NCBI GenBank assembly: GCA_964535575.1
Contig: CAZHTC010000001.1
Location: 657,965 to 721,964, forward strand
DNA from: an uncultured Bifidobacteriaceae bacterium
GTDB taxonomy: Bacteria > Bacteroidota > Bacteroidia > UKL13-3
Direction: 5' to 3'
DNA length: 64,000 nt
Below are positions 3,497-64,000 of this stretch, in pieces; the stretch's first letter is position 1, and every line of letters begins with the position of its first letter. The translations under genes were made by a program, and so were the position numbers. The notes below the pieces were generated by a model. That model worked only from the letters and a program-made list of their open reading frames with translations, was not told the DNA's origin and did no database searches.

Positions 3497-3503
3497 ACAG
3501 AAA

Positions 3504-3938: not shown

Positions 3939-3972
3939 AACTTATCTGTTGATACCAATGTATTCTCAAATG

Positions 3973-4008: not shown

Positions 4009-4029
4009 TTTTGTTAATGCACCAGGAGA

Positions 4030-4473: not shown

Positions 4474-4614
4474 CTTTATTCGTATTCTATTTTTGGGTGG
4501 TAAATTTACAATAACTATTCCAAATATGGAAGAATGTCAAATTTAACGCGGGATTGAGGGAAAAAACAAGCAACCGTAAATTTCATTTTTTCGCATCGCC
4601 TTTGCAGCTTATTT

Positions 4615-7047
4615 TTGAACTTTAAAATCAGCAACCGAATGAGCGCAACCGAATCACAATCTTTAACCCTGGAGCAATTCAAACAAGTGGTAATGAACGA
4701 TTACAAGGTTTGTTTTGAAAGCAGACAGGCCAGTTTATTAGGCCGAAAAGAGGTTTTAACAGGCAAGGCGAAATTCGGGATTTTTGGCGATGGAAAGGAA
4801 TTGCCGCAGATAGCCATGGCCAAAGCCTTTCGGGAGGGAGACTTCCGATCGGGCTATTACCGAGACCAAACATTTATGATGGCCAGCGGATTACATACCG
4901 TTCAGGAGTTTTTTGCGCAGCTTTACGCCAATACCAGTGTGGAGGCAGAACCCGCCTCGGCCGGAAGGATGATGAACGGACACTTTGCAACCCGAACCCT
5001 CAATGAAGACGGTACCTGGAAAGAGCTGAAAAAATTAAAAAACTCTTCGGCTGATATTTCGCCAACAGCAGGGCAAATGCTTCGGTTGGTTGGTTTGGCC
5101 CATGCTTCCAAATATTACCGCGATAACCGGGAACTGATTGGAGAAAATCAGTTTTCGGAAAACGGAAATGAAATTGCCTGGGGAACCATTGGCAACGCCT
5201 CTACCTCAGAAGGGCATTTTTTTGAAGCCATTAATGCGGCAGGAGTGCTCAAAGTTCCCATGATTATTTCGGTGTGGGATGATGAATACGGAATTTCGGT
5301 TCATGCCAGATACCAAACTACCAAACAAAACATTTCAGAAATTTTAAAAGGATTTGAGCTAAACGACAAGGGAGAAGGATTCAATATTTACCGGGTAAAC
5401 GGATGGGATTACCCCGAGCTGGTGCGTGTGTACGAAGCCGCGGCAAAAGAGGCACGCGAGAAACATATTCCGGCCATTGTGCATGTAAAAGAATTAACCC
5501 AACCCCAGGGTCATTCAACTTCGGGTTCGCATGAACGTTACAAAAGTAAAGAACGTTTACAATGGGAACTGGAAAACGATTGCATACTTAAATTCAGGCA
5601 ATGGATTATAGGCAGCGGACTGAGCACCGAACAGGAACTGAACCGGCTGGAAGAGGATGCCAAAATTTTTGTGAATGTGGCTAAAAAATCGGCATGGGAA
5701 AATTACCTCGCCCCTATAAAAAATGATATTGCCGAAGCCTGTGTGATGATAGAGCAATTGGCTTCGGTGAGTACAAACGGAGAAGACATACGTAAGCTTG
5801 CTGCCGACCTCAGAAAAATTACCGAGCCTGTACGTAAAGATATGATGGTGGCTATTGATAAGGCCCTTCGCATTTCGTATGGCGAAAACCACACTTACCG
5901 AAACGAACTGATAGAGTTCCGCCAACAGCAAATTGAAACGAACAAAGAGCGTTACAGTTCTTATTTGTACAGCAACTCTACTGCATCGGCCATTAAAGTA
6001 GCCGAAGTGAACCCCCTGTATTCGGAGGATAGTAAAACCGTTGACGGGCGTGAAATAATGCAGGCGTTTTTTGATAGAGTATTCGAAAAAGACCCGCGTG
6101 TGTTCGCGTTTGGCGAAGACGTAGGAAAAATAGGGGACGTGAATCAGGGTTTTGCCGGCTTACAGGAGAAATACGGAGAAACACGTGTATTCGACACCGG
6201 AATTCGCGAACTCACCATTATCGGACAGGGATTAGGTGCTGCCATGCGCGGCCTTCGCCCCATTGCCGAAATTCAATACTTGGATTATTTGCTTTATGCA
6301 TTGCAACCTTTAAGCGATGACGTAGCCACCCTGCAATACCGAACCAAAGGCGGGCAAAAAGCACCACTTATTGTGCGTACCAGAGGCCATCGGTTAGAGG
6401 GAATATGGCATTCGGGCTCCCCAATGGGAATGATTTTGAATTCCCTTCGCGGTATGTACGTGCTCACTCCGCGTAATATGACTCAGGCGGCAGGTTTTTA
6501 CAATACCATGCTCAAAAGCGATGAACCGGCCTTAATTATTGAATGCCTTAACGGGTATCGTCTCAAAGAAAAAATGCCTGACAATTTAGGAGAGTACACC
6601 GTTATCCCCGGCAAACCGGAAGTGCTACGAAACGGAACGGATGTTACCATTATTACCTATGGCTCCACCTGCCGCATTGCCGAAGAAGCTGCCCAGCATC
6701 TGGCAGAAATGAATGTGCATTGCGAATTGATTGATGTACAAAGTTTGCTTCCGTTTGATACCGGCCATTCTATTGTGGAATCATTAAAGAAAACCAATAA
6801 GGTAATTTTTCTTGACGAGGATGTGCAGGGAGGAGCAAGTGCATTTATGATGCAGCAGGTTCTCGAAATTCAAAACGGATACAAGTGGCTTGATTGTGCC
6901 CCGCGCACACTCACCGCAAAAGACCATCGCCCGGCTTATGCAACTGACGGAGATTACTTCTCCAAATCAAATGCCGAGCAACTGGTAGAACTGGTGATGG
7001 AAATGATGCACGAACAAAACCCGTTGCAGTTTCCGCGGTTTATATAA
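4615..7047 (+). CDS. Fused alpha/beta 2-oxoacid dehydrogenase E1 component (TPP-dependent)
   Basis: The N-terminal half is E1-alpha-like. The C-terminal half is E1-beta/transketolase-like (RVFDTGIRELTIIGQGLGAAMRGLRPIAEIQYLDY; ITYGST). The listed start is TTG at 4615; the first ATG is at 4639. Confidence 0.8.
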   Translation: MNFKISNRMSATESQSLTLEQFKQVVMNDYKVCFESRQASLLGRKEVLTGKAKFGIFGDGKELPQIAMAKAFREGDFRSGYYRDQTFMMASGLHTVQEFFAQLYANTSVEAEPASAGRMMNGHFATRTLNEDGTWKELKKLKNSSADISPTAGQMLRLVGLAHASKYYRDNRELIGENQFSENGNEIAWGTIGNASTSEGHFFEAINAAGVLKVPMIISVWDDEYGISVHARYQTTKQNISEILKGFELNDKGEGFNIYRVNGWDYPELVRVYEAAAKEAREKHIPAIVHVKELTQPQGHSTSGSHERYKSKERLQWELENDCILKFRQWIIGSGLSTEQELNRLEEDAKIFVNVAKKSAWENYLAPIKNDIAEACVMIEQLASVSTNGEDIRKLAADLRKITEPVRKDMMVAIDKALRISYGENHTYRNELIEFRQQQIETNKERYSSYLYSNSTASAIKVAEVNPLYSEDSKTVDGREIMQAFFDRVFEKDPRVFAFGEDVGKIGDVNQGFAGLQEKYGETRVFDTGIRELTIIGQGLGAAMRGLRPIAEIQYLDYLLYALQPLSDDVATLQYRTKGGQKAPLIVRTRGHRLEGIWHSGSPMGMILNSLRGMYVLTPRNMTQAAGFYNTMLKSDEPALIIECLNGYRLKEKMPDNLGEYTVIPGKPEVLRNGTDVTIITYGSTCRIAEEAAQHLAEMNVHCELIDVQSLLPFDTGHSIVESLKKTNKVIFLDEDVQGGASAFMMQQVLEIQNGYKWLDCAPRTLTAKDHRPAYATDGDYFSKSNAEQLVELVMEMMHEQNPLQFPRFI

Positions 7048-49672: not shown

Positions 49673-51121
49673 ATGTATTACCGATACGCAGCCTGGCTCC
49701 TACAGGTACTCATTTTTGTATTAACCCTGCACGACCCCTTTTTTGGTGATGCCATTTCTACGGTTTCACGGGCTGCGGTGCATATGTATAATCAAAACTT
49801 AGGAACCATCTGGTATCTTCCACAGCACGATCCGGGTCACCCTACATTTTTTCCTTATTTGCTGGCCGTTTTATGGAAAATAGCCGGAAAACACTTGTGG
49901 GTAGCACATCTGCTTACCTTGTTATTTGCACTTGGGGTTACCACCCAATTGCATCGGCTGGCTATAAAAACCATTGGTGGTACCCCCGCACATTGGGTAC
50001 TGTTGCTTGCCGTGGTTCAACCTGCGTTTGTGGCTCAAAGTGCCATGGTGCTTACTCATTTGCCCCTGGCGTTTTTCTTTTTATGGGCCTTAAACAATTT
50101 GTATCCGCGGTTTAACAAAAAAAATTTTTGGGTGGCTAGTGTATTCATGGTGCTTACCCATTTGGAAGGTGCTTTTTTACTGGCCGGCACCGCTTCTTCG
50201 TGTTTTTTAATGCAACTAAAAACAACAGGTGTAAAACGGGGCTTAACGGAAACCGTAAAGTTGTTTGCTCCGGCTTTTACAGTATTGTTTATATGGGGAG
50301 CGGCCCATGCACACCACACCGGCTGGTGGTTTTCTTCGCCCGTGTATGCCGACCACCGCTCGTGGATGGGTGTGTTGCCCATGATAAAAAGTGTTGCCCT
50401 TATTGCCTGGCGAATGGTTGATTACGGTAATTTTGTTTTTTACCTCATTATTTGCTGGGCCGTTGCCACCCGAAAACTTTACCGCCATCCCCTGTTTATG
50501 TATGTGGCCGGAGCATTTACAAGTTGCGTGCTGGTGTTTTCGGTGCTCATGAGCAAAAGTATAGCACACCGGTATTTTTTACCTGTGCATTTGCCTGCCC
50601 TTGTGTTGTTGCTGCTTGCCCTTAACGAGTTTCGGGCCAAACAGGCCACCCTGCTATTGCTGCTTAGCGTACTTGCCCTTATGGCCGGAAACTTTTTATA
50701 CTATCCCGGCAAATGTATTGGCGATGCCACCATCACCTACCGCAACTACTTTTTTATTGCAGGCCGCATACATACCGAACTTCCTGCCGATGTGGTTTTA
50801 TATACCTATGCTCCTTTGTCGAACAACGACTCGGTAACCACCCTCAACGAGTTTGAATTGTTAAACACTTCCGAAATCTATCCGCAGCCAGTTAATCAGG
50901 TGCCCGTGGTGTTGCAAAGTAATTGCAATTGCGATTTTACCTCTGCCGAACTGAATGAAATTGCCGGGTGGAAAGGAAAAAGTTATGAGCAGGGAGCCGT
51001 GTATGCCAATGTACTTTTTAACCCTGCCTTTTATCCGGTTCCGTTACTCAATGAACCGCTCCGCAAAAAATCGGGGGCCGAATTGTGGATGGAACAACTA
51101 AAAAGTAGCCTGAAAAAATAA
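49673..51121 (+). CDS. Polytopic GT-C-type membrane glycosyltransferase-like protein (ArnT/PMT-like)
   Basis: 482 aa with a multi-TM N-terminal region and a soluble C-terminal domain. It is divergent from 48320..49642. Confidence 0.5.
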   Translation: MYYRYAAWLLQVLIFVLTLHDPFFGDAISTVSRAAVHMYNQNLGTIWYLPQHDPGHPTFFPYLLAVLWKIAGKHLWVAHLLTLLFALGVTTQLHRLAIKTIGGTPAHWVLLLAVVQPAFVAQSAMVLTHLPLAFFFLWALNNLYPRFNKKNFWVASVFMVLTHLEGAFLLAGTASSCFLMQLKTTGVKRGLTETVKLFAPAFTVLFIWGAAHAHHTGWWFSSPVYADHRSWMGVLPMIKSVALIAWRMVDYGNFVFYLIICWAVATRKLYRHPLFMYVAGAFTSCVLVFSVLMSKSIAHRYFLPVHLPALVLLLLALNEFRAKQATLLLLLSVLALMAGNFLYYPGKCIGDATITYRNYFFIAGRIHTELPADVVLYTYAPLSNNDSVTTLNEFELLNTSEIYPQPVNQVPVVLQSNCNCDFTSAELNEIAGWKGKSYEQGAVYANVLFNPAFYPVPLLNEPLRKKSGAELWMEQLKSSLKK

Positions 51122-52470: not shown

Positions 52471-52565
52471 GCAAAACTTTTACGCACACAATACTAAACT
52501 TTGAAGCTAAAACCAGGCTGACCTGAGAAAATAGTTTTAAATGTCCTGATTAAATCTGATTGCAA

Positions 52566-53819
52566 ATGAAAAAGAATGTATTGATAATTGGTGGTGGCTT
52601 TGCGGGTGTTGAACTCGCCAAATCGTTAGATACAACCCTTTTCAATATCACGTTAATCGACAGATTAAACCACCATCAGTTTCAGCCTTTGTTTTACCAG
52701 GTAGCTACCTCCCAAATTGAGCCTTCCAGTATATCCTTTCCGCTGAGGTATATTTTTAAAGGAAATAAAAACATACAAATACGGCTGGCCGAGGTGAACG
52801 AAATTCATCCGGCATTAAATAAAGTATCCACCTCGGCTGGTGACTTTTTTTACGATTTTCTCATTATTGCCACCGGTTGTAAAACAAATTTCTTTAATAA
52901 CCCTGAAGTAGAAAAAAATGCCTTCCCGTTAAAAACCACTTACGATGCCATTGCCATACGCAACCGCATAATCTCTGTTTTTGAAAAGGTGCTGAGTGCC
53001 CCCGAAACAGAACTGGAAGCTCTGTTTAACTTAGTAATTGTAGGGGCCGGGCCCACCGGAGTAGAGTTGGCCGGAGCCTTTGCCGAAATAAAGCGTTATG
53101 TATTGCCAAAAGATTATCCCGGCATTGACTTCTCGCGGTTTTCGGTTTACCTGATTGAAGGAAGTAAAAGACCACTGAACGCCATGAGCGAACACGCAGG
53201 CAAAGCGTCTTATACTTATTTAGAAAAAATGCAGGTGAAACTCATCACCGAAACTTTTGTAAAAACGTATGACGGCAAAGTTGCCGTTTTATCCAACGGA
53301 CAATCTATTCCCACCGCCACCCTTATTTGGGCCGCGGGAGTGAAAGGAAATAAAATAAACGGCCTGCCTCAGGAGGTGTGGATAGCCAACGACCGCATAA
53401 CCGTTGACCGGTTTAACCGCATACAAGGTTTTGAAAACATTTTTGCCCTTGGCGATATTGCATTTATGACAACTCCCAAATACCCTAAGGCACATCCGCA
53501 GGTGGCTAATGTGGCCATTAATCAGGGAAAATTATTAGGGAAAAATCTCAAAAATATACTCACCGGTAAAAGCTGTGTGGAATATGAATACAAAGATTTG
53601 GGAGCAATGGCAACCATAGGGCGAAACAAGGCCGTGGTGGATTTACCGTTTGTAAAATTTAAGGGGTATTTCGCGTGGCTGGTATGGATGTTTCTTCACC
53701 TCATGCTTATTTTAACCGTACGAAACAAACTGATTATATTTATTAACTGGGCCTGGTCGTATATTACCAAAAACAGTTCGCTGCGCTTAATTCTTAAAGC
53801 CGATGACACAAAGGGCTGA
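52566..53819 (+). CDS. ndh: Type II NADH:quinone oxidoreductase (NDH-2)
   Basis: Two dinucleotide folds (IIGGGFAGVE; VGAGPTGVELAG). GD..F...P...AQVA context. C-terminal hydrophobic helix. The listed ORF opens with TTG at 52560; the first ATG is at 52566. Confidence 0.85.
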   Translation: MKKNVLIIGGGFAGVELAKSLDTTLFNITLIDRLNHHQFQPLFYQVATSQIEPSSISFPLRYIFKGNKNIQIRLAEVNEIHPALNKVSTSAGDFFYDFLIIATGCKTNFFNNPEVEKNAFPLKTTYDAIAIRNRIISVFEKVLSAPETELEALFNLVIVGAGPTGVELAGAFAEIKRYVLPKDYPGIDFSRFSVYLIEGSKRPLNAMSEHAGKASYTYLEKMQVKLITETFVKTYDGKVAVLSNGQSIPTATLIWAAGVKGNKINGLPQEVWIANDRITVDRFNRIQGFENIFALGDIAFMTTPKYPKAHPQVANVAINQGKLLGKNLKNILTGKSCVEYEYKDLGAMATIGRNKAVVDLPFVKFKGYFAWLVWMFLHLMLILTVRNKLIIFINWAWSYITKNSSLRLILKADDTKG

Positions 53820-53891
53820 GCATAAAAGTGCCTGATTAACACATGTGCTGTAACGGGGATGCTTACACGTTGGGCAATTGGCGCCTTTTAT

Positions 53892-54317
53892 TTAGGTTGC
53901 CGGTATTGTGAGTTCCTGTGAGCCGTTTTTCCAAATATTGTTGCCCAAGTCAACCAGCTTTTGCATATCGCTTTCTATCACTTTAGCAAAAATATTGCAG
54001 GCGTCTAATCCCTTTCCTTCTACATAATAAATGCCGAAACAGTTGGCCGTTTTCGTGCGTTTGGCATTTTGTGGTCCAACCACAACTTCGCCCTGTTCAG
54101 TAAACACTGATGCGTTTCCTGAATAACGTCAACCGGTGGCACATTGTCTATCCAAACTTCCTGGCCCGAAATTCTTGCGTGAAAAAAAGTCCTTGTGAAA
54201 GGCAGGATTTCAGCAAACGCTTTTGATGTTACCGGTGCTGTATCCAGGTAAAATTTAAAAGTTATTTCCTGCTTGTCTTTAGTTGTTACTTTAAATCCGG
54301 TAATATTTTTACCTTCT
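53892..54317 (-). pseudogene. Frameshifted, start-less cyclophilin-like (DUF3830-like) gene remnant
   Basis: The frame from 54317 reads ..ITFKFYLDTAPVTSKAFAEILPFTRTFFHARISGQEVWIDNVPPVDVIQE. The sequence then continues in another frame as (N)ASVFTEQGEVVVGPQNAKRTKTANCFGIYYVEGKGLDACNIFAKVIE (listed ORF 53892..54107). There is no ATG/GTG/TTG in the upstream frame after the TGA at its 5' end. Confidence 0.55.
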
Positions 54318-54836
54318 TTATAGTTGCTTCAACATTACTTTATTTTCGTAAGAGTTTTTTTCCATATGAAAAAGTGCATTACCAATCCACTTATAATTTT
54401 GTCGTTCGTAAAACGATATGGCTCTTTGATTTGAAACAAGAACCCAAAGCCACATTTCTTTATTTCCTTTTAATTTTACAACCTTTTCTGCCTCTGCTAA
54501 TAAATGGTTTCCAATACCCTGCCCGCAAAATCTTTCTAAAATATATAACTTATTAAGTTCAGGGGCTACAATATTATTGATTGGGCATTTTTTATCAAAT
54601 TCAATTTCCACTACACCAACTAGGTTGTTTTTGTAAACAGCCAGTATAAAGTTATCCGGATTATTTACAATTGAGTTGTGCAGTCTTTCGGGTGAAAATT
54701 GTTTAACTATAAAATTCGCAAATTCATCTGATACCCCTTCGATGCCGTAAGTTTGAATATATACTTGTTTGAAAAGTATAGAAAGTTTAATAACATCCGT
54801 TTCGTTTGCCTTTCTAAAGGTAATTTCTTGTCGCAT
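54318..54836 (-). CDS. GNAT-family N-acetyltransferase
   Basis: ATG at 54836 (MRQEITFRKANETD); the listed ORF opens with TTG at 54854. Acetyl-CoA motif LYILERFCGQGIGNHLL and NQRAISFYERQNY. Confidence 0.8.
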   Translation of the reverse strand: MRQEITFRKANETDVIKLSILFKQVYIQTYGIEGVSDEFANFIVKQFSPERLHNSIVNNPDNFILAVYKNNLVGVVEIEFDKKCPINNIVAPELNKLYILERFCGQGIGNHLLAEAEKVVKLKGNKEMWLWVLVSNQRAISFYERQNYKWIGNALFHMEKNSYENKVMLKQL

Positions 54837-54856
54837 TGATTTTAGTTTTACCAAAC

Positions 54857-55222
54857 TTATTGTTTCCCTGTATTTGTTCCAACGGACAGAGCAGTAGCTG
54901 CGTTAGTATTTTTATCTACCAATATGATTACGCCCTTTTTTAAATTATCAGGGCTGGCCGTGTGATATTTTACATGTCCTTGTGCACAATCAACAACTAT
55001 GTTAAGATTTGAAATATGTCCCTTTTTCCAAGATGCTTTTATACTGGTTGAAATATTGTGTGCCGAAAAAACGCTATCCGCTTTCTGAATTTCTGGCTTT
55101 GTAGTTTTGTTGGTAATTACAAAACTGACTCTGTTGTTATCATTTGAAACAGTAACATCCTGGGCTTTAAGATAACCCCAAAACAAAATAACGAATGTGG
55201 TGAGTGCTAATTTAATTTTCAT
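54857..55222 (-). CDS. Hypothetical small secreted protein
   Basis: Signal peptide MKIKLALTTFVILFWGYLKAQ. No family recognised. Confidence 0.5.
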   Translation of the reverse strand: MKIKLALTTFVILFWGYLKAQDVTVSNDNNRVSFVITNKTTKPEIQKADSVFSAHNISTSIKASWKKGHISNLNIVVDCAQGHVKYHTASPDNLKKGVIILVDKNTNAATALSVGTNTGKQ

Positions 55223-55279
55223 GTTTTTTTAATTGCTTTTTGTGAATTGAATTGTCTGCGGTTTCAGGTTGTTATAAAA

Positions 55280-55424
55280 TGCCTGTAATGCCAGAGTCCC
55301 GCAGAAGATGGGGGGGGTGAAAACCCAGGTGAAATTTCATGGTGTAAACCTGATGAAAAAAACACATATAAACAAGAAGAAAGTGACGGGTTGTTTTCGG
55401 GGGAGGTTTTCGTGCTACACATCA
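55280..55424 (-). repeat. Degenerate attC-like site A
   Basis: Minus strand: TGTGTAGC (55421-55414) ... diverged copy of the core (ccatgaaatttcacc...tgcgggac) ... ATTACAGGCA (55289-55280). A G8 run (55310-55317) replaces one hairpin arm. Confidence 0.35.
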
Positions 55425-55435
55425 CGGGTGAGTTT

Positions 55436-56686
55436 TCATTTTGTCACAAAGAATTTTGCAGTTACCCTGTGAGTACCTTCTTCAAAAACCCCAAAATATT
55501 GTCCTTCTGAAAGGAATGTGATATCAAGGGAAACGTTTCGGCTGTTGATGTCAGTATACATTTTTTGAAGCTGCCCGGATTCATTGTAGATCATAAACTG
55601 ACCCGCTTTAGGTTCAAACGGAAGTTGAATATTCAACTCATTCAGGGTTGGATTTGGATAAATTTTCAGATAATTTGAAAGGTTGATTTCGTTACTGTTT
55701 AAAGTCACAGGAACACTCCATAGAACCACATCACTTAATGCATTTCCGGTCGCAATTTTATCTCCGCTGGGTGACCAGGCAACCGCATAAACAGCTCCAC
55801 TGTCGGCAACTGCAAATGTGGTAATTAAACTGCCGGTGTTAAGGTTCCATATCTTACAAGTACTGTCTGATGAAGCGGAAACTATTCTGCTTCCATCAGG
55901 AGAAATATCAATTCCGTTCACATCGTTGGTATGTCCGCCAATGGTTCTAACCAAAGCCCCTGTGGCTATATTCCATATTTTTATTTTGTCATCTTTTGAA
56001 GATGATACAACAAAACTGTTGTCCGGGGTAACTTTTACATTGGTAATATCGTCTGTGTGCCCGGTACAGGTATATAACAATGTTCCGGTGTTGCTCCATA
56101 TCCTTACTTTATTATCGTTCCCTCCGGTAATTATTTTAGTTCCGTCTGGCGAATAAGCAACAGTTGTAACCCAACCCGGATGTGCATTGATATCGCTGTG
56201 AAGTGTTCCGCCCTGAATATTATAAATTTTTAATTTACCATTTGAGCATCCAACAGCAACCTTGTTATTACCGGGCGAAATAGCGGTTGAAAACCCGTAC
56301 GATGTTCCTGTATTTATGGTATCAATCATTACCGGATTTACTCCGGTATTATCAAAAATGAAGATATTACCAAACTCTTCAATGGCAGCTATATAATTAG
56401 TGTTAGCGCTAAATGCCACACCCATTATGCACATGTAAGCCATTCCAACATTGTAATCCCAATCCAAATTGGATGAGGCTGCATCAAACATTCGGATATG
56501 TGCCGGATGGCAATTGGTGCCGCTTAGCACCTTTTTACCGTCAGCTCTAAAGGCAACTCCATTCACCTGAAGGTTTAATGGATTTCCCTTCCTTGACCAA
56601 TCCATTGTTTGGGCAGTGCAAATTCCAACGGTTAAAACTACAAAGGTTATGAATGCCGGGGCCGTTTTAATTATTTGTGATTTCAT
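55436..56686 (-). CDS. WD40-repeat beta-propeller protein with T9SS type-A C-terminal domain
   Basis: Signal peptide. Repeated GH...V..V..SPDG..I.S.S.D...KIW units. C-terminus IYPNPTLNELNIQ....MIYNESGQL.....LSEGQYFGVF....FFVTK. Confidence 0.8.
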   Translation of the reverse strand: MKSQIIKTAPAFITFVVLTVGICTAQTMDWSRKGNPLNLQVNGVAFRADGKKVLSGTNCHPAHIRMFDAASSNLDWDYNVGMAYMCIMGVAFSANTNYIAAIEEFGNIFIFDNTGVNPVMIDTINTGTSYGFSTAISPGNNKVAVGCSNGKLKIYNIQGGTLHSDINAHPGWVTTVAYSPDGTKIITGGNDNKVRIWSNTGTLLYTCTGHTDDITNVKVTPDNSFVVSSSKDDKIKIWNIATGALVRTIGGHTNDVNGIDISPDGSRIVSASSDSTCKIWNLNTGSLITTFAVADSGAVYAVAWSPSGDKIATGNALSDVVLWSVPVTLNSNEINLSNYLKIYPNPTLNELNIQLPFEPKAGQFMIYNESGQLQKMYTDINSRNVSLDITFLSEGQYFGVFEEGTHRVTAKFFVTK

Positions 56687-56732
56687 ACTGATTATTTTTT
56701 TGTTTATGTCAATAGCTATTGGATCCCACGCT

Positions 56733-56860
56733 TGCCGCTAACATAAGAGCCCCGCATAGGGCGGGACAGGTGTGAAAAAAACTTTGTTCAATTTCATAGG
56801 GTAAAACTTGTGAAAAGAATCGACAAAAGCAAGGGAAAAAGCCAGAGGCTATGGTTGGGT
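56733..56860 (-). repeat. attC-like site B (core-repeat family)
   Basis: Minus strand: ACCCAAC/CCATAGC (56860-56848) ... conserved core ... hairpin (56749-56767) ... GTTAGCGGCA (56742-56733). nt 56760-56839 are identical to 60492-60571. Confidence 0.55.
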
Positions 56861-56874
56861 GCTGGCAGTTCTTT

Positions 56875-58482
56875 CTATGGTTCGATAATTATTTTTTGTG
56901 TCGCCTTTTCATATGGTGTTTCAATTGTCAAAATGTATGTCCCACCTAAATTCAGGTTTTTAATTTTCCGCTGAAATGTATTTTCGCCAAGAACTAAATT
57001 GGTTAAAATTCTTTCTTCTATTTTTTTACCGTCAATACTATAAATTGAAATTTTTGTTTCTGCTATTTTATTTAAATTAAATTTCACCAAAAAATTTCCG
57101 TCATTCGGATTTGGCAGCACTTGCATTTTCAATGTTCCAATACTTTGTTCATTTAAGTTGTGAATACCTACAGAAGAGTTTTTTATAACATACACTTTGA
57201 ATATTTGGCTGCTGGCACTACTCTGTGTTCCCGTATTTGTAAAAAATATATTTGCTGCGGTGCTGCTAATACCGCCATAAATGTAGCCAACCAAAGTGCT
57301 GTCTGCTGTGAAATCATCCAATTTAAAAACATCGTTATTAAAATGCGGAACACTTATAATAGGAATAAATTCTGCACCAGCACCCAACAAACTTGGCATT
57401 TCAACCGGAAGTTTGTATTCAGCCATTGTTCCAGCCCCATCTCTTGTTACCCTTGCAATTGTCTTTACAAAGGGAACATTATTATCTTGAACCAACACTC
57501 CTAAACTATCATAGTATTGAGCAATACCGCCAAAGAACACGTTGTGCATCTCATTATTTGCTACTGAATAAAGTGGAAGGGTAGCACAATGGTAATGGTT
57601 GTAATATTGTTGAAACAAATTATTTACCACATAACTTGAGCTGTCAATATTTACACAATTCAGAAATGGTAAATCAACTGTTGGCTGAAATACGCCCGAA
57701 AATGCAGTAATTCCTTCTGCTCCGTTTGGTAATATTTGAGGCACTGCATTGTAATCTCTCCGGTGCAGATTTGCAGCATCAGTAATTGTTGGCAAATGGC
57801 CTATTGTTATGGTTGTTCCGTCATCAGTTAAATTAAATTTTCGTATTGCGTCCGTATATACCTGCGTATAAGTTGGACCACCCATAGGATTATAGTTTCC
57901 GTCAAATTTATTACCGCCAACCAGGTAAAAAGTATTATTTATTTTCTTTAGATGTCCACCTGTTACCGCAAATTGCGCATCACTCATTTGTCGAAAATAA
58001 CTTGTGAATGAGTTTCCTCCAATAACCGCATTTATTACTGAAGGGACATCAATTGCGGTTAATTTGTCGAAAGTTTTTCTTGCTGATGATGCTGCATTGT
58101 AGCCATATCCACCAACGATATAAAGATAATTTCCTTCTTGATGAAACTCCATATTAGTTGAACTTAATTGTTCTTGTAAAGAAACTGAAAGGGAAGTTAT
58201 TGGTGCAGTCCATTTTTGCTGAGATACAGGGTCAATGACAATTAATTGATTGTTGTTTCCTGCAACATCAAACGCTGCAAATGGTTGTCTTCGGTGAAGT
58301 CCGTCAAGTCGACCACCAACAATAAGCCATTTTCCGTTGTGTTGTCCAAAAGCATAGGCTTGAAGTCCACCAAGTGCAGATATATTCATTGGTTCAATAT
58401 AAATATTAAAAGGTGTCGTCTGAGAAAAGACTGAAAAACTTAAAAAGATTAGTCCCAAAAATGTCTTTAGTTTCTTTGTCAT
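56875..58482 (-). CDS. Kelch-like beta-propeller protein with T9SS type-A C-terminal domain
   Basis: Signal peptide. Repeated ...YLVGG/IVGGYG... blades. C-terminus VLPNPNDGNFLVKF......IYSIDGKKI......LGGTYILTIE....QKIIIEP. AT-rich. Confidence 0.65.
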   Translation of the reverse strand: MTKKLKTFLGLIFLSFSVFSQTTPFNIYIEPMNISALGGLQAYAFGQHNGKWLIVGGRLDGLHRRQPFAAFDVAGNNNQLIVIDPVSQQKWTAPITSLSVSLQEQLSSTNMEFHQEGNYLYIVGGYGYNAASSARKTFDKLTAIDVPSVINAVIGGNSFTSYFRQMSDAQFAVTGGHLKKINNTFYLVGGNKFDGNYNPMGGPTYTQVYTDAIRKFNLTDDGTTITIGHLPTITDAANLHRRDYNAVPQILPNGAEGITAFSGVFQPTVDLPFLNCVNIDSSSYVVNNLFQQYYNHYHCATLPLYSVANNEMHNVFFGGIAQYYDSLGVLVQDNNVPFVKTIARVTRDGAGTMAEYKLPVEMPSLLGAGAEFIPIISVPHFNNDVFKLDDFTADSTLVGYIYGGISSTAANIFFTNTGTQSSASSQIFKVYVIKNSSVGIHNLNEQSIGTLKMQVLPNPNDGNFLVKFNLNKIAETKISIYSIDGKKIEERILTNLVLGENTFQRKIKNLNLGGTYILTIETPYEKATQKIIIEP

Positions 58483-58753
58483 TTTATTTGATATTAATTT
58501 GCCCGAAATTACTTTTTTGTTGCGGGTCTGTTTGTGACCTTTGATACATAACTAATATTTAGTTCCGGAACAGGTTCATCAACTAAACCTAAAGACAGAA
58601 AAATTATGGAAAAACAAATAGATTAAAAAAGTTACTCCTGTAAACTTTTTTCAGGACGAGACAAGGGAAACTTCTGATCCAATAAATTTATGACTTGTCC
58701 ATAGGTCAGAACCTCCATAAGCTCAATTGCACGTAGGGCTGTTTGACTTAAAT

Positions 58754-59146
58754 TCATTTCTTGCCTGAAAGTTTAAAAATGATAAAAGTTGCCAAAAACG
58801 CTTCTAATAAACTCAAAGGAATGGCAGTTAGTAATATTCCGAAAGGCAATACGCCTAAATTTCCTACTACTAACCACATAAAAACAAAACCAACAAACCA
58901 GGATAAAAACGTGGTTTGAAATAGAGTAAATTTTTTGCTGAATATGAAAATGGCCATTGCAAAACATAAAGACCAAATTCCCCAAACAGCTCCATTGATA
59001 GGCTGTTCAGGAAATGTCAACCTCAAACTTTGGTAGTGTTCTATCCAATAATTGTGTAATAAAAATGTGTTGCGAACAAATTCGGAAATGCTAATCCAAA
59101 TGGTCGCCATAAGAACCGGTAAAACGGTCTTTTTAATGATTGTCAT
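58754..59146 (-). CDS. Hypothetical 4-TM membrane protein
   Basis: 130 aa with four hydrophobic segments. No family recognised. Confidence 0.55.
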   Translation of the reverse strand: MTIIKKTVLPVLMATIWISISEFVRNTFLLHNYWIEHYQSLRLTFPEQPINGAVWGIWSLCFAMAIFIFSKKFTLFQTTFLSWFVGFVFMWLVVGNLGVLPFGILLTAIPLSLLEAFLATFIIFKLSGKK

Positions 59147-59180
59147 AAACTTTAAATTTTATTTTTTCGCTTTATATGCT

Positions 59181-59304
59181 TGCCCATAACCTCAGAATCC
59201 CGCATTGGGCGGGACAGGTGTGAAAAAACCTTTGTTCAATTTCATAGGGTAAAACTTGTGAAAAGAAACCACAAAAGCAAGAGAAAAAGCCAGAGGCTAA
59301 GCCA
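59181..59304 (-). repeat. attC-like site C (core-repeat family)
   Basis: Minus strand: TGGCTTAGCC (59304-59295) ... core ... hairpin (59197-59215) ... GTTATGGGCA (59190-59181). The end boxes plus adjacent CCTCTG/CTGAGG are complementary. Confidence 0.55.
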
Positions 59305-59352
59305 TACCTTCAATCTCGGCACGCGAGCAATGGCGGGAAATTTGTCCTTTAC

Positions 59353-59455
59353 AAAAATACCGAGTTAAAAAAATGAAAGGCTCATAAACCAGCTATTTGC
59401 TTCAACAAATTTAAAAAACAGAGTTGTGCAACAGCTACCCGTGTTAGCGGCTGGC
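59353..59455 (-). repeat. Second repeat module (copy 1 of 2), placed directly after a stop codon
   Basis: Near-identical to 63764-63866. The minus strand starts CCGCTAACACGGGTAGCTGTTGCACAACTCTG. Confidence 0.5.
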
Positions 59456-59461
59456 GTTTCT

Positions 59462-60424
59462 TCATAGCACATCTGTGTTAGCAATATTTGTCGGATTACC
59501 GTTAATGAAATTAATTACGTTTTCAAATGCCTTTCCAAAATACAATTCATAACCGTTTCGTTCTACATAACCCAAATGGGGAGTACAAACCACATTTGGC
59601 AATTTAAGTAACTCATAGTTTATGTCATAAACGGGTTCCTCTTCATAAACGTCAAGACCTGCAAATGTTGGTCTGCCCATTATTAAGCATTTTAATAGCT
59701 TTCCTTTTTCAATAAGCTCTGCTCTTGCGGTATTTATTAATACTGAATTTTCTTTCATTGACAACAAGTCACTTTCCTTAACTATTCCAAGTGTTTTTTC
59801 ATTTAGTCGAAGATGTAAAGTTATGATGTCAGCTGTTTTGAAAAATACTTCTTTGGATTCAGCTTTATCAAAGCCATCCGCAATTGCTTTCTCTCTTGAT
59901 ACCTCACTTCCCCATATCAAAACTTTTGCTCCGAAAACTTTGGCATATTGAGCAATCTTTTGTCCTATTTTCCCATAACCCCAAATACCAAGTGTTTTGC
60001 CATGAATTGTTGAACCAATATTTATTTGCCACTTTCCGTTTTTCATACCTTCAATTGCTTGTGGAATTTGTCTGACTGTATTCATTAATAAAGCCCAGGT
60101 CAACTCTGCTGGTGCAATTGGTGAGCCTATCCCTTCAGCAACTGCAACTTTGTATTTTGTGCAGTCCGCTAAATTTAAGTGATTTGAAATTTTACCCGTC
60201 TGACTTATTAATTTTAGGTTTGGCAGTAAGGAAAGAAGTGATTCGTTAACTTCTGTTCTCTCCCTTGTCAAAACGAGTACGTGTGTATCTCGTAATTTTT
60301 GTGCTAATATTTTTACGTCTTTTTCCGTACTATTTATTATTTGTACCTTTTGATTTTTTAATATGGTAAAACAATCTAATTCTTTAATAATATTTTGGTA
60401 GTCGTCTAAAATTGTGATTGTCAT
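59462..60424 (-). CDS. D-isomer-specific 2-hydroxyacid dehydrogenase family protein
   Basis: NAD fold GIWGYGKIGQKIAQYAKVFGAKVLIW. Catalytic-region motifs NTARAELI and CTPHLGY. Confidence 0.85.
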   Translation of the reverse strand: MTITILDDYQNIIKELDCFTILKNQKVQIINSTEKDVKILAQKLRDTHVLVLTRERTEVNESLLSLLPNLKLISQTGKISNHLNLADCTKYKVAVAEGIGSPIAPAELTWALLMNTVRQIPQAIEGMKNGKWQINIGSTIHGKTLGIWGYGKIGQKIAQYAKVFGAKVLIWGSEVSREKAIADGFDKAESKEVFFKTADIITLHLRLNEKTLGIVKESDLLSMKENSVLINTARAELIEKGKLLKCLIMGRPTFAGLDVYEEEPVYDINYELLKLPNVVCTPHLGYVERNGYELYFGKAFENVINFINGNPTNIANTDVL

Positions 60425-60464
60425 TTTATGTGCTTTAATTTATTAATAGGTCGTCTGTTATGCT

Positions 60465-60588
60465 TGCCACTAGCGGCAGCGTCCCGCATTGGGCGGGACA
60501 GGTGTGAAAAAAACTTTGTTCAATTTCATAGGGTAAAACTTGTGAAAAGAATCGACAAAAGCAAGGGAAAACGCCAGAAGCTATGGCA
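60465..60588 (-). repeat. attC-like site D (core-repeat family)
   Basis: Minus strand: TGCCATAGC (60588-60580) ... core ... hairpin gtcccgc/gcgggac (60481-60499) ... GCTAGTGGCA (60474-60465). The ends pair with one unpaired base. Confidence 0.55.
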
Positions 60589-60769
60589 ATACCTTCACTT
60601 GTGGCGGCACGGGAGCGAAGGCGGGGTGAGTTCATGCTTATAAAATTTGCCGGTTTTAGTTTTGTACTGAAAAAGGGTGCTTACAACTAGACCTCACTAC
60701 ATTTGAGAACTGAGGTTACACTCTTCATTTATGTCTTGTCACAAGTTGCAAACTTGCGACAGCTTTGGG
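60589..60769 (-). repeat. ORF-less conserved extension shared with 63469..63670
   Basis: Contains ataccttcacttgtggcggcacgggagcgaaggcggggtgagttcatgcttataaaatttgccgg and the hairpin gtcacaagt-tgcaa-acttgcgac (60738-60760). No credible ORF. Confidence 0.5.
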
Positions 60770-60859
60770 GGAAATTGTTCAAAAATCATATTGTTTAATC
60801 AACTTTTATATGTCTTTATTTTTACATTAGGTTTTTGAATTCTCAGGGTAGTCTTAGCA

Positions 60860-60897
60860 TGACCGCTAACGTTAGAGTCCCGCAATGTGTTACAGGG
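60860..60897 (-). repeat. Short attC-like junction overlapping the stop codon of 60890..61780
   Basis: Minus strand: CCCTGTAAC (contains the TAA stop) acattgcgggact CTAAC|GTTAG CGGTCA. The 10-nt palindrome ctaacgttag lies at 60866-60875. Confidence 0.3.
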
Positions 60898-61780
60898 CGT
60901 TTTTCCTTTTTCCCGGTTTAAATTCAAGTATCTCGTCTCGTTTTGGCGATGTAACATATTGCTTCTTATCATTCCCATATTTATCCATAATCCAAATGTC
61001 TGAATTTTCTGCTACACGTGTATAGGCAATAAATTTTCCGTCTGGAGTCCAGCGTGGCCATCTGTTATCTAAAGTGTCTGTAGTTAACTGTTTGATATTA
61101 CTACCGTCAATGTCCATGATATAGATGTCAGCTTTATTTTTTAAAAAGTAGTGGCACGCAATTGTTTTTCCGTCAGGTGAAATATCTAACGCTCCATCGT
61201 TCCCTATTCTGTTTGTCAATCTGGTGTGATAGCTTCCCGCAGTGTCCGTAACAAATATTTCGCTATTGGTTATTTTGTTAGCAGAGTCTTTATCCATAAA
61301 TGACGTATAAAATATTCGTATACCATCAGGATGAAATGTTGGCGAACCGTCTAATCTGTCGTTGGTTGTTATTCGTGTTGTTTTTTTACTGGTTAAATTC
61401 ATTAAGTAGATTTCATTTTGTTTGTGGTCGGCATTTGAAACATATAAAATGCTTTTTCCATCCGGAGAAAACGATGGACCATATTGGTCTAGCGTATCAT
61501 TTGTAAGTTGTAAAGTCGTTTTCAATTCAACATTGTAGAGATAAAGGTCATATTGCTTGTTAACCTGCTTTGCAAAAAGAATAAATTTTCCATCCGGGCT
61601 CCACTTAATTCCATAGTCGGTAAACTTATCGTTTGTAATGTTGAGAAGTTGGTCGTTTGTGGAAGAAATATATAAATCTAAATTTTCGTCTCTGTCAGAA
61701 ATAAGGGCGTATTCATATTTGACCGTTTTGCACGAGTTTAAAACTAAAAGTCCCAAAAGGAATATGTAAATTCTTTTCAT
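60890..61780 (-). CDS. TolB-like PD40/WD40-like beta-propeller protein
   Basis: Lipoprotein-like signal (LLVLNSC). Repeated ...SPDGK.I.F/Y....... blades (WSPDGKFILF, FSPDGKSILYVS, ISPDGKTIA, WTPDGKFIAY). Confidence 0.75.
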   Translation of the reverse strand: MKRIYIFLLGLLVLNSCKTVKYEYALISDRDENLDLYISSTNDQLLNITNDKFTDYGIKWSPDGKFILFAKQVNKQYDLYLYNVELKTTLQLTNDTLDQYGPSFSPDGKSILYVSNADHKQNEIYLMNLTSKKTTRITTNDRLDGSPTFHPDGIRIFYTSFMDKDSANKITNSEIFVTDTAGSYHTRLTNRIGNDGALDISPDGKTIACHYFLKNKADIYIMDIDGSNIKQLTTDTLDNRWPRWTPDGKFIAYTRVAENSDIWIMDKYGNDKKQYVTSPKRDEILEFKPGKRKNAL

Positions 61781-61798
61781 TGTTGTCGTCTTTTAAAA

Positions 61799-61921
61799 TG
61801 CCCTACAACGTTTTGCGGCTACCCAAAGGGCGGGACTTCTACCACAAAACTGTCTTTGGAACACGAATTGAAAATCAGCTAAGCTAAACCCCGCCTTTTG
61901 GGTAGCTGCTGTTATGTGCCA
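61799..61921 (-). repeat. attC-like site F (unrelated interior, same ends and length)
   Basis: Minus strand: TGGCACATAAC (61921-61911) ... GTTGTAGGGCA (61809-61799). A 20-nt long-range stem joins 61815-61834 and 61890-61909, with two G-T pairs on the plus strand. Confidence 0.5.
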
Positions 61922-61924
61922 TAT

Positions 61925-63322
61925 TTATTCTATTCGTCTGTTTTTAAAATTATCGTCAAATATTTTGTCAAGGGTTGTTGTGTGTCTATTTACAATTATC
62001 AACTTGGTTTTGTCTTGCAAATTTGTTGTATAAACAAATTCCTGTTCTGCTTTGTACTTCCAATTTTTTAGTTCTGGAAATATCGCTTTTATAATCTTTA
62101 ACTTGTACTTGTTGGCACACGATATAATAATCACTTTTGTAATTGGCGTTTCTTTCATTTGCTCAATGCCGCTTTGGGTGATAGGAGATAGAGATAAATA
62201 ATAACTAGAATGACGATAGTGTGAATTAAAGAAATCAAAGTCTTTCGGTTCGTCTGCTATTATATAACGGTTTGTAAACAAATTATCCAATTCGTTTGTC
62301 CAATCAGAAAAATTACTATCATACAAATCAACATATTTGTCAATAAAATTTTTGTCTATTGCTTTTTGCTGATTTATATACTCCTTCACTAATGGATAAA
62401 TCTGTTTTGACATTAAGTTGATGTATTTGACATTATACCAATCGGAATTATCTACTTTTCCGTTTAATTGTTCATAAACATACCCATTTCCTAACGATGT
62501 TGCCAATGCTTCATTTAGTAGTAAATATGCGTATTGACTATTTTTAGAAGAGTTATTGTTAAACCATGATTGGATTTTAAGTTTCAATTCCAAAGATTGT
62601 CCATCGTAAATGTTGTGATATATTTCGTGCATAAGAACACCGAATAAAATATCGTTTTCTTTGAAGTTAATAGGAACTTCACTTATAGCATTATTCAAAA
62701 ATGCTTTTGCTGTAAAACCACCTTTGCTGATTGAAGGAATAATTGCAATATCAATAGGAATAGAATTGTCCCATTGCGAGCCGTAAAAAATCAAACCCTT
62801 TTGAAAAAAGTTTGAAAGATTAGATTTTTGAACATATTCTTTTAGTTCGTTTAATTGCTTTTCAAATTTGTCTTTGTTTGGAAAGAAAATCAAGTTGTCA
62901 TAAATAGGTTCAAAATCAGAAAGAATGTGTGAAAAGGCAAATAGTTCTGTGTTCGGAACAATTCCAAAAGTTAAATTTTTGAAGTGCTGAATTGATACGG
63001 CATTGATTAAGTTTCTCTCAATAAGAGATGTAGTCATAACGGGTATTTTTTGTCCCGTTGGATACCCTTGAAAATTATACGATTCGTAAATATTTAAAGT
63101 GTCAAACTGTTTCACTAAGTCTATATAGTGTCTTGTGTGGAATTTTGAAGATTGAAACGCTTGTTTACACTCGTTGTCAGGATAGTTGTCGGACAATTTT
63201 TGTATAAAGTCATAAGTAGCCAATATCTTTGAATAGGTGAGGTTTATTATCGGCTCTTTTTGTCCAAATGCTGTACTAAAAGAAAATAAGAAAATTATTA
63301 AAAATGTCGCTTTTATGTTCAT
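61925..63322 (-). CDS. Hypothetical secreted protein with HExxH motif (possible zinc metallopeptidase)
   Basis: The ATG at 63322 gives the signal MNIKATFLIIFLFSFSTAFGQ. Single LMHEIYHNIY motif. Very AT-rich. The upstream extension of the listed ORF runs into the repeat. Confidence 0.55.
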   Translation of the reverse strand: MNIKATFLIIFLFSFSTAFGQKEPIINLTYSKILATYDFIQKLSDNYPDNECKQAFQSSKFHTRHYIDLVKQFDTLNIYESYNFQGYPTGQKIPVMTTSLIERNLINAVSIQHFKNLTFGIVPNTELFAFSHILSDFEPIYDNLIFFPNKDKFEKQLNELKEYVQKSNLSNFFQKGLIFYGSQWDNSIPIDIAIIPSISKGGFTAKAFLNNAISEVPINFKENDILFGVLMHEIYHNIYDGQSLELKLKIQSWFNNNSSKNSQYAYLLLNEALATSLGNGYVYEQLNGKVDNSDWYNVKYINLMSKQIYPLVKEYINQQKAIDKNFIDKYVDLYDSNFSDWTNELDNLFTNRYIIADEPKDFDFFNSHYRHSSYYLSLSPITQSGIEQMKETPITKVIIISCANKYKLKIIKAIFPELKNWKYKAEQEFVYTTNLQDKTKLIIVNRHTTTLDKIFDDNFKNRRIE

Positions 63323-63342
63323 TGTTGTACGTTTTTTTAATA

Positions 63343-63468
63343 TGGCACATAACGGCAGCGTCCCGCAAGGGGCGGGACAGGTGTGAAAAAAAACTTTGCT
63401 CAATTTCATAGGGTAAAACTTGTGAAAAGAAACCACAAAAGCAAGGGAAAATGCCAGAAGCTATGGCA
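63343..63468 (-). repeat. attC-like site E (core-repeat family)
   Basis: Minus strand: TGCCATAGC (63468-63460) ... core ... hairpin (63360-63378) ... GTTATGTGCCA (63353-63343). Confidence 0.55.
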
Positions 63469-63670
63469 ATACCTTCACTTGTGGCGGCACGGGAGCGAAG
63501 GCGGGGTGAGTTCATGCTTATAAAATTTGCCGGTTTAGTTTTGTACTCAAAACGGTGCTTACAAAATAAACTTAACCCATTCGGGTACTGAAGTTACACC
63601 CCGAATGAGTCGGGACAAAAGAACTTCAATTATTTCTTGTCACAAGTTGCAAACTTGCGACAGCTTTGGG
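63469..63670 (-). repeat. ORF-less conserved extension shared with 60589..60769
   Basis: Same flanking blocks and the same hairpin (63639-63661). The central ~50 nt is replaced by a different hairpin (cattcgggt...accccgaatg). Confidence 0.5.
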
Positions 63671-63763
63671 CAATGATAAAATTAAGGGAAGAACTGACCC
63701 AATTAGAAAGCCACATCATACAACAAATTCTGCTTTCATTACAGCTCACCAAAATTTTTAACT

Positions 63764-63866
63764 AAAAATACCGAGTTAAAAAAATGAAAGGCTCATAAAC
63801 CAGCTATTTGCTTCAATAAATTTAAAAAAACAGAGTTGTGCAACAGCTACCCGTGTTGGCAGCTGC
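63764..63866 (-). repeat. Second repeat module (copy 2 of 2), placed directly after a stop codon
   Basis: Near-identical to 59353-59455. The minus strand starts GCTGCCAACACGGGTAGCTGTTGCACAACTCTG immediately after the TAG at 63871-63869. Confidence 0.5.
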
Positions 63867-63868
63867 TC

Positions 63869-64000
63869 TATTTCTCGTCAATATAGTAGCTGTCATTCAT
63901 TTCTGGATTTGGATTAATATCATTGTAAACAATTCTCACGCTATCAATATCCTTATCTGCTTCTTCAATTTGTCTGCGAAGTGAGTTAATTTTATCACAT
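63869..64000 (-). CDS. 3' end of an unidentified ORF (truncated by window edge)
   Basis: My translation gives an open minus-strand frame ..CDKINSLRRQIEEADKDIDSVRIVYNDINPNPEMNDSYYIDEK ending in TAG at 63871-63869. Too short to assign. Confidence 0.4.

Follow-up and report, generated by a model that had tools for sequence, protein, structure and literature searches.

Does the run of unrelated genes in the last part of a 64,000-nt stretch of contig CAZHTC010000001.1 (the whole stretch being hereafter the window) represent an integron-type array of mobile gene cassettes and, if so, by what sites and what kind of recombinase would it be built? The question arises from an original prediction, made from the sequence alone, of an integron-like gene-cassette array with attC-like imperfect palindromes in its gaps. 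Our analyses of the window and of related loci indicate that the region at 53846..64000 (minus strand) is quite probably the distal part of a chromosomal integron-type gene-cassette array in the genome of a Chitinophagales-like member of the Bacteroidota. The mobile, co-oriented cassettes of the prediction are supported by their junctions and by their occurrence in other genomes, but most of the sites that it selected, some of its R'' boxes and the integrase insertion that it anticipated are not. The locus represents a variant integron-type system, which appears to be widespread and little described.

Cassettes and cassette boundaries in the window

Between 53.89 and 64.0 kb, every real-looking open reading frame (ORF) with a length of 50 aa or more is on the minus strand, and the products are unrelated: a GNAT, a WD40 protein, a Kelch-like protein with a type IX secretion system (T9SS) tail, a D-2-hydroxyacid dehydrogenase (2-Hacid_dh), a PD40 protein and an HExxH protein (DUF4932-like, with no Pfam match), in addition to the C-terminus of an ORF that is cut off at the window edge, a 130-aa membrane protein and a small secreted protein. 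Our ORF survey and domain calls therefore agree with the predicted orientation and diversity of the products, and at least six ORF-bearing units, all co-oriented on the minus strand, can be counted.

The boundaries of these units provide the most direct evidence of their nature. The HExxH cassette (61911..63353, minus strand) starts at G|TTATGTGCCATATT (63353-63339), contains the ORF 63322-61925 and has the R'' box AATATGGCACATAAC at 61925-61911. The first 15 nt of this unit, GTTATGTGCCATATT (63353-63339), are the perfect inverted complement of AATATGGCACATAAC, which straddles the stop codon, giving 15/15 over the full box and 13/13 in the scored window compared with no more than 9/13 for non-cognate pairs. 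The adjoining PD40 cassette (60861..61809, minus strand) starts with GTTGTAGGGCA at 61809, contains the ORF 61780-60890 and ends with the R'' box CGCCCTGTAAC (60899-60889), which overlaps the stop codon, and a truncated site at 60897-60861 with the R' box GTTAGCGGTCA; its start matches its own R'' at 10/13, and GTTGTAGGGCA, which is also the R' box of the hairpin s61 described below, matches the box CGCCCTGTAAC at 60899-60889 that closes this next unit. For the D-2-hydroxyacid dehydrogenase cassette (59443..60474, minus strand), with the start GCTAGTGGCAAGC at 60474-60462, the ORF 60424-59462 and the R'' box GCCAGCCGCTAAC at 59455-59443, the score is 9-10/13, most non-cognate pairs of starts and R'' boxes in the window having 7-9 of 13. 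A crossover at G|TT is therefore indicated for three cassettes in the window, and the junction in the locus L103 (see below) agrees with it, with the WD40 cassette and the last cassette as exceptions. Complementarity of a cassette start to its own R'' has, at the level of sequence, the look of an integron cassette inserted at G|TT.

Under this reading each cassette would start at the TT of a GTT(A/G)nnn box, carry one or two minus-strand ORFs and end in a YAAC-type box (R'') 0-15 nt from the stop codon, followed by a recombination site whose last base is G. By analogy with integrons, a tyrosine recombinase would cut between the G and the TT of a single-stranded folded site, the bottom strand being favored, and the excised cassette would be a circle whose own first bases pair with its own R''.

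R''-type boxes are present 0-15 nt past the stops of the ORF cut off at the window edge and of the HExxH, PD40, 2-Hacid_dh and Kelch-like ORFs. The coordinates originally assigned to the boxes are accurate to within 1 nt, and an ATG follows each R'-type box (GTTAnnGGCA) by ~30-70 nt in every case, as had been stated. The claim that the first box of a site lies just past a stop codon applies to the true R'' boxes, which directly follow stop codons, but not to CCATAGC. Nor do the proposed R'' boxes form one series, since their registers differ between copies: ACCCAAC (56.8 kb) is upstream of the position that aligns with CCATAGC.

A folded site at the end of the HExxH cassette

The HExxH cassette has at its 3' end an attC-type hairpin, s61 (61800..61919, minus strand). 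In this site the R'' box ACATAAC is separated by 1 nt from a stem of 20 bp that encloses a loop of ~50 nt, and the return arm of the stem is followed by AAAAC and the R' box GTTGTAG. It is matched by the covariance model R3, built from sites of other loci (see below), with 58.5 bits (E 6.7e-12), the opposite strand scoring 9 bits. The duplex of its 3' arm with the upstream partner has an energy of -22.7 kcal/mol versus -10.8 +/- 2.1 kcal/mol for shuffled arms, and folding is better for the bottom strand (-20.3 kcal/mol, z -2.4) than for the top strand (-18.1 kcal/mol, z -1.7).

A palindrome of attC type (57-141 nt, with AAC and GTT ends) was found at 61919-61800 and at none of the five copies of the main repeat discussed below. 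Boxes without a stem are found in the short sites past the stops at 59455 and 63866 and at 60897-60861, and this last, truncated site is a marginal R3 match (E 0.43) by its R'' and R' boxes only. That the boxes of every site should be able to form a stem as inverted repeats of each other, as proposed, is borne out at 61.9-61.8 kb only, and not for the five-copy repeat, whose potential partners are mostly within the range of shuffled sequences.

The same cassettes in other contexts and genomes

The metagenome contig L103 (WBZU01066352.1) shares with the window the 2-hydroxyacid dehydrogenase cassette and what lies downstream of it, but has a different upstream site. Upstream of the cassette in L103 are 31 nt of a site that we designate type C; similarity to the window starts at CCG(T/C)TAGTGGCAAGC; immediately ahead of GTTAGTGGCAAGC the two sequences differ, only a few bases from where the G|TT point is predicted. 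The crossover is located to within a few bases by this comparison.

The HExxH protein family is widespread in Bacteroidota, and its cassette was also found in other settings. In L106 (a JGI contig) and L110 (Geofilum rhodophaeum) the cassette has kept both its start, GTT(A/G)TGTGCCATAT, and its end, ATA(T/C)GGCACA(C/T)AA(C/T), and the sites upstream of it in these two loci are unrelated. The end box of the cassette is also retained in L117. Directly after the HExxH stop in L143, L144 and L169, which are from metagenome-assembled genomes of Flavobacterium, Sphingobacteriales and Flavobacteriia, there is a related box, TC(G/A)CACAAC, which opens a folded site.

Among the co-oriented genes of related loci are toxin-antitoxin pairs (Gp49/HTH and DUF6364/PIN), an AbiEii gene and a type I restriction R subunit gene, in stretches at 848-1515 of L105, 19514-21291 of L106 and 13904-14568 of L104; sedentary chromosomal integrons have a comparable content of defence and toxin-antitoxin genes. 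The animal pathogen Riemerella anatipestifer RCAD1090 (L248, NZ_JAFELW010000019.1) has three cassettes at 166-2684, each followed by a site of R3 type, that encode a GNAT with a weak, below-cut-off match to AAC(3)-I, a lipoprotein of unknown function and the lincosamide nucleotidyltransferase Lnu(H) (580 bits, cut-off 540). In the same species dfrA49-catB has been described in 'variable regions', the mechanism being unnamed (PMC10100655).

A family of Bacteroidota sites and its crossover point

The covariance model R3 and its alignment, A5, comprise 11 sites of 135-144 nt from six loci outside the window. The sites have a 21-bp stem, of which 19 pairs are changed on both sides among the 11 sites. 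Paired bases occupy 75% of the alignment cells, compared with 30-39% when the partners are slid, and the covariation score is 0.48 versus 0.12-0.13 for slides of one or two columns, a value that 0/500 shuffles reached. The stem therefore covaries across the family. The AAC and GTT triplets hardly vary, if at all. Because mismatches of the top-strand stem turn into G-T pairs on the bottom strand, it is the bottom strand that folds better, as in integrons. In other loci R3 finds as many as six or seven sites within 8 kb, each preceded by an ORF, and its matches are on one strand per locus except for a weak reverse-strand echo of a match in L236. No description of this family of ~137-nt Bacteroidota sites was found in the literature that we searched.

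We determined the crossover point of the family from 35 cassettes in 16 arrays of other Bacteroidota by scoring the ten bases beyond the GTT/AAC triplet. Cassette starts matched their own 3' R'' at a mean of 7.57/10, most at 9/10, compared with 3.92/10 for R' versus R'' of the same hairpin (p = 5e-11) and 3.86/10 for other pairs in the same array (p = 7e-14). Because cognate complementarity exceeds that of same-hairpin and other pairs, exchange at or next to G|TT is a family-wide property.

Two details of pairing recur in these sites. In most cassettes (L110, L138, L169 and L205-L299) the R-box pairing comprises a perfect 10 bp, a constant A.C mismatch and two more pairs, the mismatch being between the A at position 11 of the start and a C in the R'' extension. 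In the stem, the column pair 32-122 is mismatched in 10/11 sites. Judged from the alignments, both may be recognition features comparable to the extrahelical bases of integron sites.

The five-copy repeat and other elements of the gaps

The most abundant element of the gaps is a repeat that we located with an nhmmer profile on both strands of the window. The near-identical repeat family that had been noted is real: five copies and a fragment (60888-60858) were found, all on the minus strand and all within 8 kb, and the profile found no copy in 1-55000 of the window and none on the opposite strand. Three of the copies are s63 (63337..63476, E 3e-41), with a non-folding conserved core and the terminal R' box GTTATGTGCCA; s60 (60459..60596, E 8e-44), which has no R2 or R3 match (R2 being a model of class 1 attC sites, see below); and s59 (59175..59311, E 7e-42), which ends in the R' box GTTATGGGCAAGC. 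At s56 (56728..56866) the R'' box GCCAGCACCCAAC (56866-56854) directly follows the stop of the Kelch-like ORF and the repeat (56857-56728) ends in the R' box GTTAGCGGCAAGC (56742-56730); the repeat here occupies the entire R''-to-R' interval of ~125 nt (56866-56730). The fifth copy (55278..55386, E 4.3e-9) is diverged and ends in ATTACAGGCA. The conserved core, over which copies are 79-100% identical, extends from about CTTTTCCCTTGC to GCGGGAC.CTG..GTTAnnGGCA, and three copies have an extra left extension of 45 nt.

The description of the five 122-126 nt sites as attC resembling the Vibrio cholerae repeat (VCR) was not confirmed, as they are not imperfect palindromes and match no attC model built here. 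Their minimum-free-energy folds are local only, and a hairpin formed with the 3' arm was dismissed as its pairing is mostly within the shuffle range. Compared with the true site s61, the last ~36 nt are alike (24/36 identical) and the 5' two-thirds are unrelated. A promoter was likewise dismissed, there being no TAnnTTTG box on either strand, and a group II intron or insertion sequence fragment was considered and is without support from Rfam, which gave no match at gathering thresholds for the whole window or at permissive thresholds for 53.8-64 kb.

Outside the window the repeat is rare. Against the GTDB genomes, an exact pattern gave no match and a degenerate one chance matches only, and the profile found no copy in 120 loci collected with the arm of the type C site; the only further occurrences are in three short metagenome contigs, in each case between co-oriented unrelated ORFs. 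In L103 a true hairpin-type site stands in for the repeat at the same junction, and because of this junction the repeat belongs with the upstream unit. We treat it, from sequence comparison, as a putative derived or hybrid site that has spread within the array and fills the slot of a folded site. Homologous exchange within the array may have spread it as a degenerate hybrid site; alternatively, it may be used as a site in unfolded form or be a passenger element.

Since the gaps comprise one hairpin site, one truncated site, five non-folding repeats and additional repeated modules, they do not share the one architecture that had been attributed to them. Such modules make up an ORF-less stretch at 63520..63866 (minus strand), in which the stop of the cut-off ORF is followed by the R''-like box GCAGCTGCCAAC (63866-63855) and in which a 'T-module' and a hairpin module, GTCGCAAGTT-TGC-AACTTGTGAC (63670-63624), are also present. 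Further module copies are at 60640-60860 and 59320-59455, and a blastn map showed the modules of the long gaps at 63.9-63.3, 60.9-60.4 and 59.5-59.1 kb to be 92-98% identical. They recur in L087 and L094. The hairpin module, with a 10-bp stem and a 3-nt loop, has a second copy in the window at 60769-60723, and outside it is found at ~1500-1545 of L094 and ~85-130 of L087 (reverse strand), there directly after an R''-type box. A module of ~110 nt, with 98% identical copies at 59455-59340 and 63866-63760, follows the stops of two unrelated ORFs and is composed of an R'' box, then GGGTAGCTG-TTGCACAAC, which has the look of a collapsed site, and then T-runs. The T-module copy upstream of s59 has two Bacteroidota -7-type boxes, TAnnTTTG, at 59413 and 59359; therefore, this 59.4 kb module could give the downstream unit its own putative promoter.

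Several ORFs of 62-79 aa cross the main repeat in different frames (63276-63515 and 60435-60635 on the minus strand, 59180-59368 and 60428-60643 on the plus strand). A protein database search with the three open frames of the repeat, as a check for miscalled ORFs, found no homologs, and these ORFs are artefacts of the repeat. The 503-aa version of the HExxH ORF with a GTG start is also an artefact, of reading into the repeat, and the likely start is the ATG at 63322. At 50626 (minus strand), GGCCCGAAACTCGTTAAGGGCAAGCAGC resembles a type C 3' arm plus R' box, with four mismatches to the R'-extended motif; it is inside an apparently intact 482-aa plus-strand ORF (49673-51121) that has no Pfam match and, therefore, is probably due to chance.

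Recombinases beside related arrays

A 25-nt probe for the 3' arm of the type C site, an arm also present in L103, L105 and L169, matched at least 120 GTDB species-representative genomes, and nearly all of those among the matches listed are Bacteroidota, including several cultured species. Of the 120 8-kb loci collected from the matches listed, 12 encode an IntI1-like protein (E down to 1e-40), with 27-34% identity to IntI1 in long tblastn matches spanning ~160-330 aa. Their best NCBIfam families are TIGR02249 (integron integrase) and NF040815, the TIGR02249 scores being 175-231 bits, under the cut-off of 265, with the match in two pieces. In an alignment, the R-K-H-R-H-Y catalytic residues and the SPLD motif at the C-terminus are retained, all 12 are without the ~41-residue IntI-specific insertion of IntI1 and many have an N-terminal extension of 90-210 aa. 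The recombinase gene is upstream of the sites in all ten loci in which it could be placed; in eight of them it shares the strand of the sites, and in two it is divergent. The advice to look for an IntI with the integron-specific insertion is consequently at odds with the enzymes of related arrays. Further long arrays have no recombinase within 10 kb and resemble clusters of attC sites lacking integron integrases (CALINs).

Among 189 other loci, a tblastn search with IntI1 found a recombinase only in L093 (Ga0099364_10012225), an unrelated metagenome contig that had been retrieved by a chance pattern match. Its region at 1163-5641 (minus strand) encodes an IntI1-like recombinase of 380 aa, with 30% identity across 341 aa and without the IntI insertion, followed on the same strand by small AT-rich ORFs that are DinB-like and NUDIX-like by eye. 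L093 may represent the same kind of system in another lineage. An 'integron-like' recombinase subgroup that includes members without the insertion has been described (PMC8138268).

By analogy with the related arrays, the enzyme for this locus would be encoded outside the window, beyond nt 64,000, and would be IntI/XerA-like, without the insertion; in such arrays its gene usually heads the array and shares the strand of the cassettes. An attI site and a Pc promoter would likewise be expected beyond nt 64,000.

The remaining units and the surroundings of the array

After repeat copy s59 there is one unit with two minus-strand ORFs, a four-transmembrane ORF (59146-58754) and the Kelch-like T9SS ORF (58482-56875), and no repeat was found in the gap at 58754-58482 between them. 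Copy s56 is followed by the WD40 ORF (56686-55436), and the fifth repeat copy by three more minus-strand ORFs, namely those for the small secreted protein (55222-54857) and the GNAT (54854-54318) and one that is decayed (54107-53892). The visible array runs off the window at 64000 and at its other end adjoins ndh (52560-53819, plus strand), which is convergent with it. The GC content drops from ~0.43 elsewhere to 0.33-0.38 exactly within the array block, and the remainder of the window consists of housekeeping genes. The organism is placed among Chitinophagales-like Bacteroidota by its ndh gene, and none of the 80 relatives examined has the same gene order downstream of ndh.

Alternative explanations

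Several observations weigh against a cassette array of integron type. A competent-looking hairpin is present at only 1 of ~8 window junctions; the five main repeats match neither R2 nor R3, and the energies of pairing of their 3' arm with a partner in the 300 nt upstream are mostly in the shuffle range, the partners varying by copy. The WD40 cassette and the last cassette have little cognate complementarity. The window, which ends inside the array, shows neither a recombinase nor an attI or promoter, and none of the ten window ORFs tested encodes a tyrosine recombinase. In 80 other genomes a recombinase is likewise missing up to 10 kb from the HExxH cassette, and there is none at the expected end of the long arrays L106 and L109. 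In addition, L103 and the other metagenome contigs are short assemblies. A proxy attC model also failed to find any Bacteroidota sites. A proxy from trimmed class 1 sites (R1) was discarded because it overlooked long attC sites that are genuine. The proxy R2, which represents 12 class 1 attC sites, recovers held-out class 1 sites; it found none in the window and none among the textbook-looking hairpins of Geofilum and L106. Being blind to all Bacteroidota sites, R2 is therefore uninformative on membership.

The repeat itself invites two explanations that have no need of cassettes. It could belong to the intergenic elements of repetitive extragenic palindromic (REP), enterobacterial repetitive intergenic consensus (ERIC) or miniature inverted-repeat transposable element (MITE) type, lying between ordinary genes and unrelated to cassette recombination, and the short imperfect terminal inverted repeats (TTGCCA.TAGC and GCTA.TGGCAA in s60), the internal local hairpins, the lack of an attC-like fold and the 79-100% identity of the core, as in a young repeat family, would all suit such an element. 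We consider it very improbable, because the dispersal in both orientations that such elements would lead one to expect is not seen in the window, where the five copies are within 8 kb on one strand and the other 54 kb and the opposite strand have none; because none is in GTDB species representatives and the three metagenome copies are between co-oriented unrelated ORFs; because a true hairpin-type site is in its place at the same junction of L103; and because complementarity at cassette boundaries is not expected of MITEs. An ordinary horizontally acquired island with a duplicated intergenic regulatory region, such as a promoter, 5' leader or small RNA, would account for each repeat ending 30-70 nt ahead of an ATG, for the two TAnnTTTG boxes in the T-module upstream of s59 and for conservation of sequence, not structure. 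That the repeat is without a TAnnTTTG box on either strand and without an Rfam match, and that the L103 junction assigns it to the upstream unit, not to the downstream gene, makes this explanation very improbable as well, and it would leave the R'' boxes past stop codons and the 61.9 kb hairpin unexplained.

A third alternative accepts the array and differs in its machinery, with the five-copy repeat as a VCR-like attC and a canonical, insertion-bearing IntI encoded divergently just beyond nt 64,000. The R' boxes loosely fit GTTRRRY, the repeat has a VCR-like length of ~125 nt, high inter-site identity is usual in sedentary chromosomal integrons and integrons have been reported in Bacteroidota (PMC8618304, PMC9024848). 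Such a classical integron is nevertheless very unlikely given that the repeat lacks a palindromic structure and is matched by neither attC-type model, that 12/12 recombinases beside related arrays are without the insertion and that 8/10 of those placed are on the strand of the array. The distal part of an integron-type cassette array, with its own kinds of site and enzyme, remains our preferred explanation. A broader proposal, for which we would put the chances at slightly below even, is that Bacteroidota have their own phylum-wide integron-like system with ~137-nt hairpins, an asymmetric spacer and an insertion-less IntI/XerA-like recombinase that is usually encoded on the strand of the cassettes, and that the five-copy repeat is a new, non-folding kind of site. 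If so, the repeat could possibly be a double-stranded, attI-like capture site present several times within one array or a hybrid half-site that exchanges at the GTTA box.

Comparison with known systems

Reviews count Bacteroidota as one of the integron-bearing phyla, but with a very low frequency (PMC8618304, PMC9668308, PMC9024848); with IntegronFinder 2.0 one complete integron was reported, in Salinibacter, where an earlier survey had only In0 elements (PMC9024848). The few surveyed Bacteroidota integrons contrast with the at least 120 species-representative genomes matched by one 25-nt probe of one type of site, and current tools and surveys may largely miss the Bacteroidota system. Should its recombinase work without the insertion, the rule of an IntI domain plus an attC model would give too low a count for what is a large pool of mobile cassettes in soil, water, gut and animal-pathogen Bacteroidota. 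The system is also relevant to antibiotic resistance because of the lnu(H) cassette in Riemerella anatipestifer.

The recombinases at the heads of the related arrays share with IntI (TIGR02249, NF011946) a best family of TIGR02249 or NF040815, the catalytic residues and the SPLD motif, with tblastn identities to IntI1 of 28-34%, for the most part over ~300 aa. They differ in their sub-cut-off score, the absence of the ~41-residue insertion, their frequent N-terminal extension and the location of their genes, mostly on the same strand as the cassettes. The IntI-specific insertion reportedly contacts extrahelical bases in VchIntIA, in the 2006 work of MacDonald and colleagues, and the Bacteroidota system would, if it functions as proposed, be a natural experiment on the recognition of folded-DNA sites without the helix that reads such bases. 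The 'inverted integrase' integrons, such as that of Treponema denticola, are alike in having the recombinase upstream and on the same strand as the cassettes, but their known recombinases are canonical IntI proteins with the insertion.

As for the sites, class 1 sites have a spacer of ~5/5-6 nt, whereas the Bacteroidota sites are asymmetric, with 1-2 nt on the 5' side versus 5 nt on the 3' side, and are missed by a covariance model trained on class 1 sites. Their R-box complementarity is longer than that of integron attC, at ~13 nt with one constant A.C mismatch. The closest counterparts are the sedentary chromosomal integrons, such as the Vibrio cholerae superintegron with its VCR sites, and CALINs. 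Unlike these, most junctions of the window bear a non-folding repeat instead of a hairpin. The likenesses are nonetheless extensive: the ORFs are co-oriented, unrelated and mostly promoterless, and related Bacteroidota arrays likewise include toxin-antitoxin pairs; the sites are of 120-140 nt with AAC...GTT ends and a long imperfect stem, and are species-specific and homogenised within the array; and with the crossover at G|TT, the 3' part of an R' box goes with the cassette that follows it, the bottom strand again folding better than the top.

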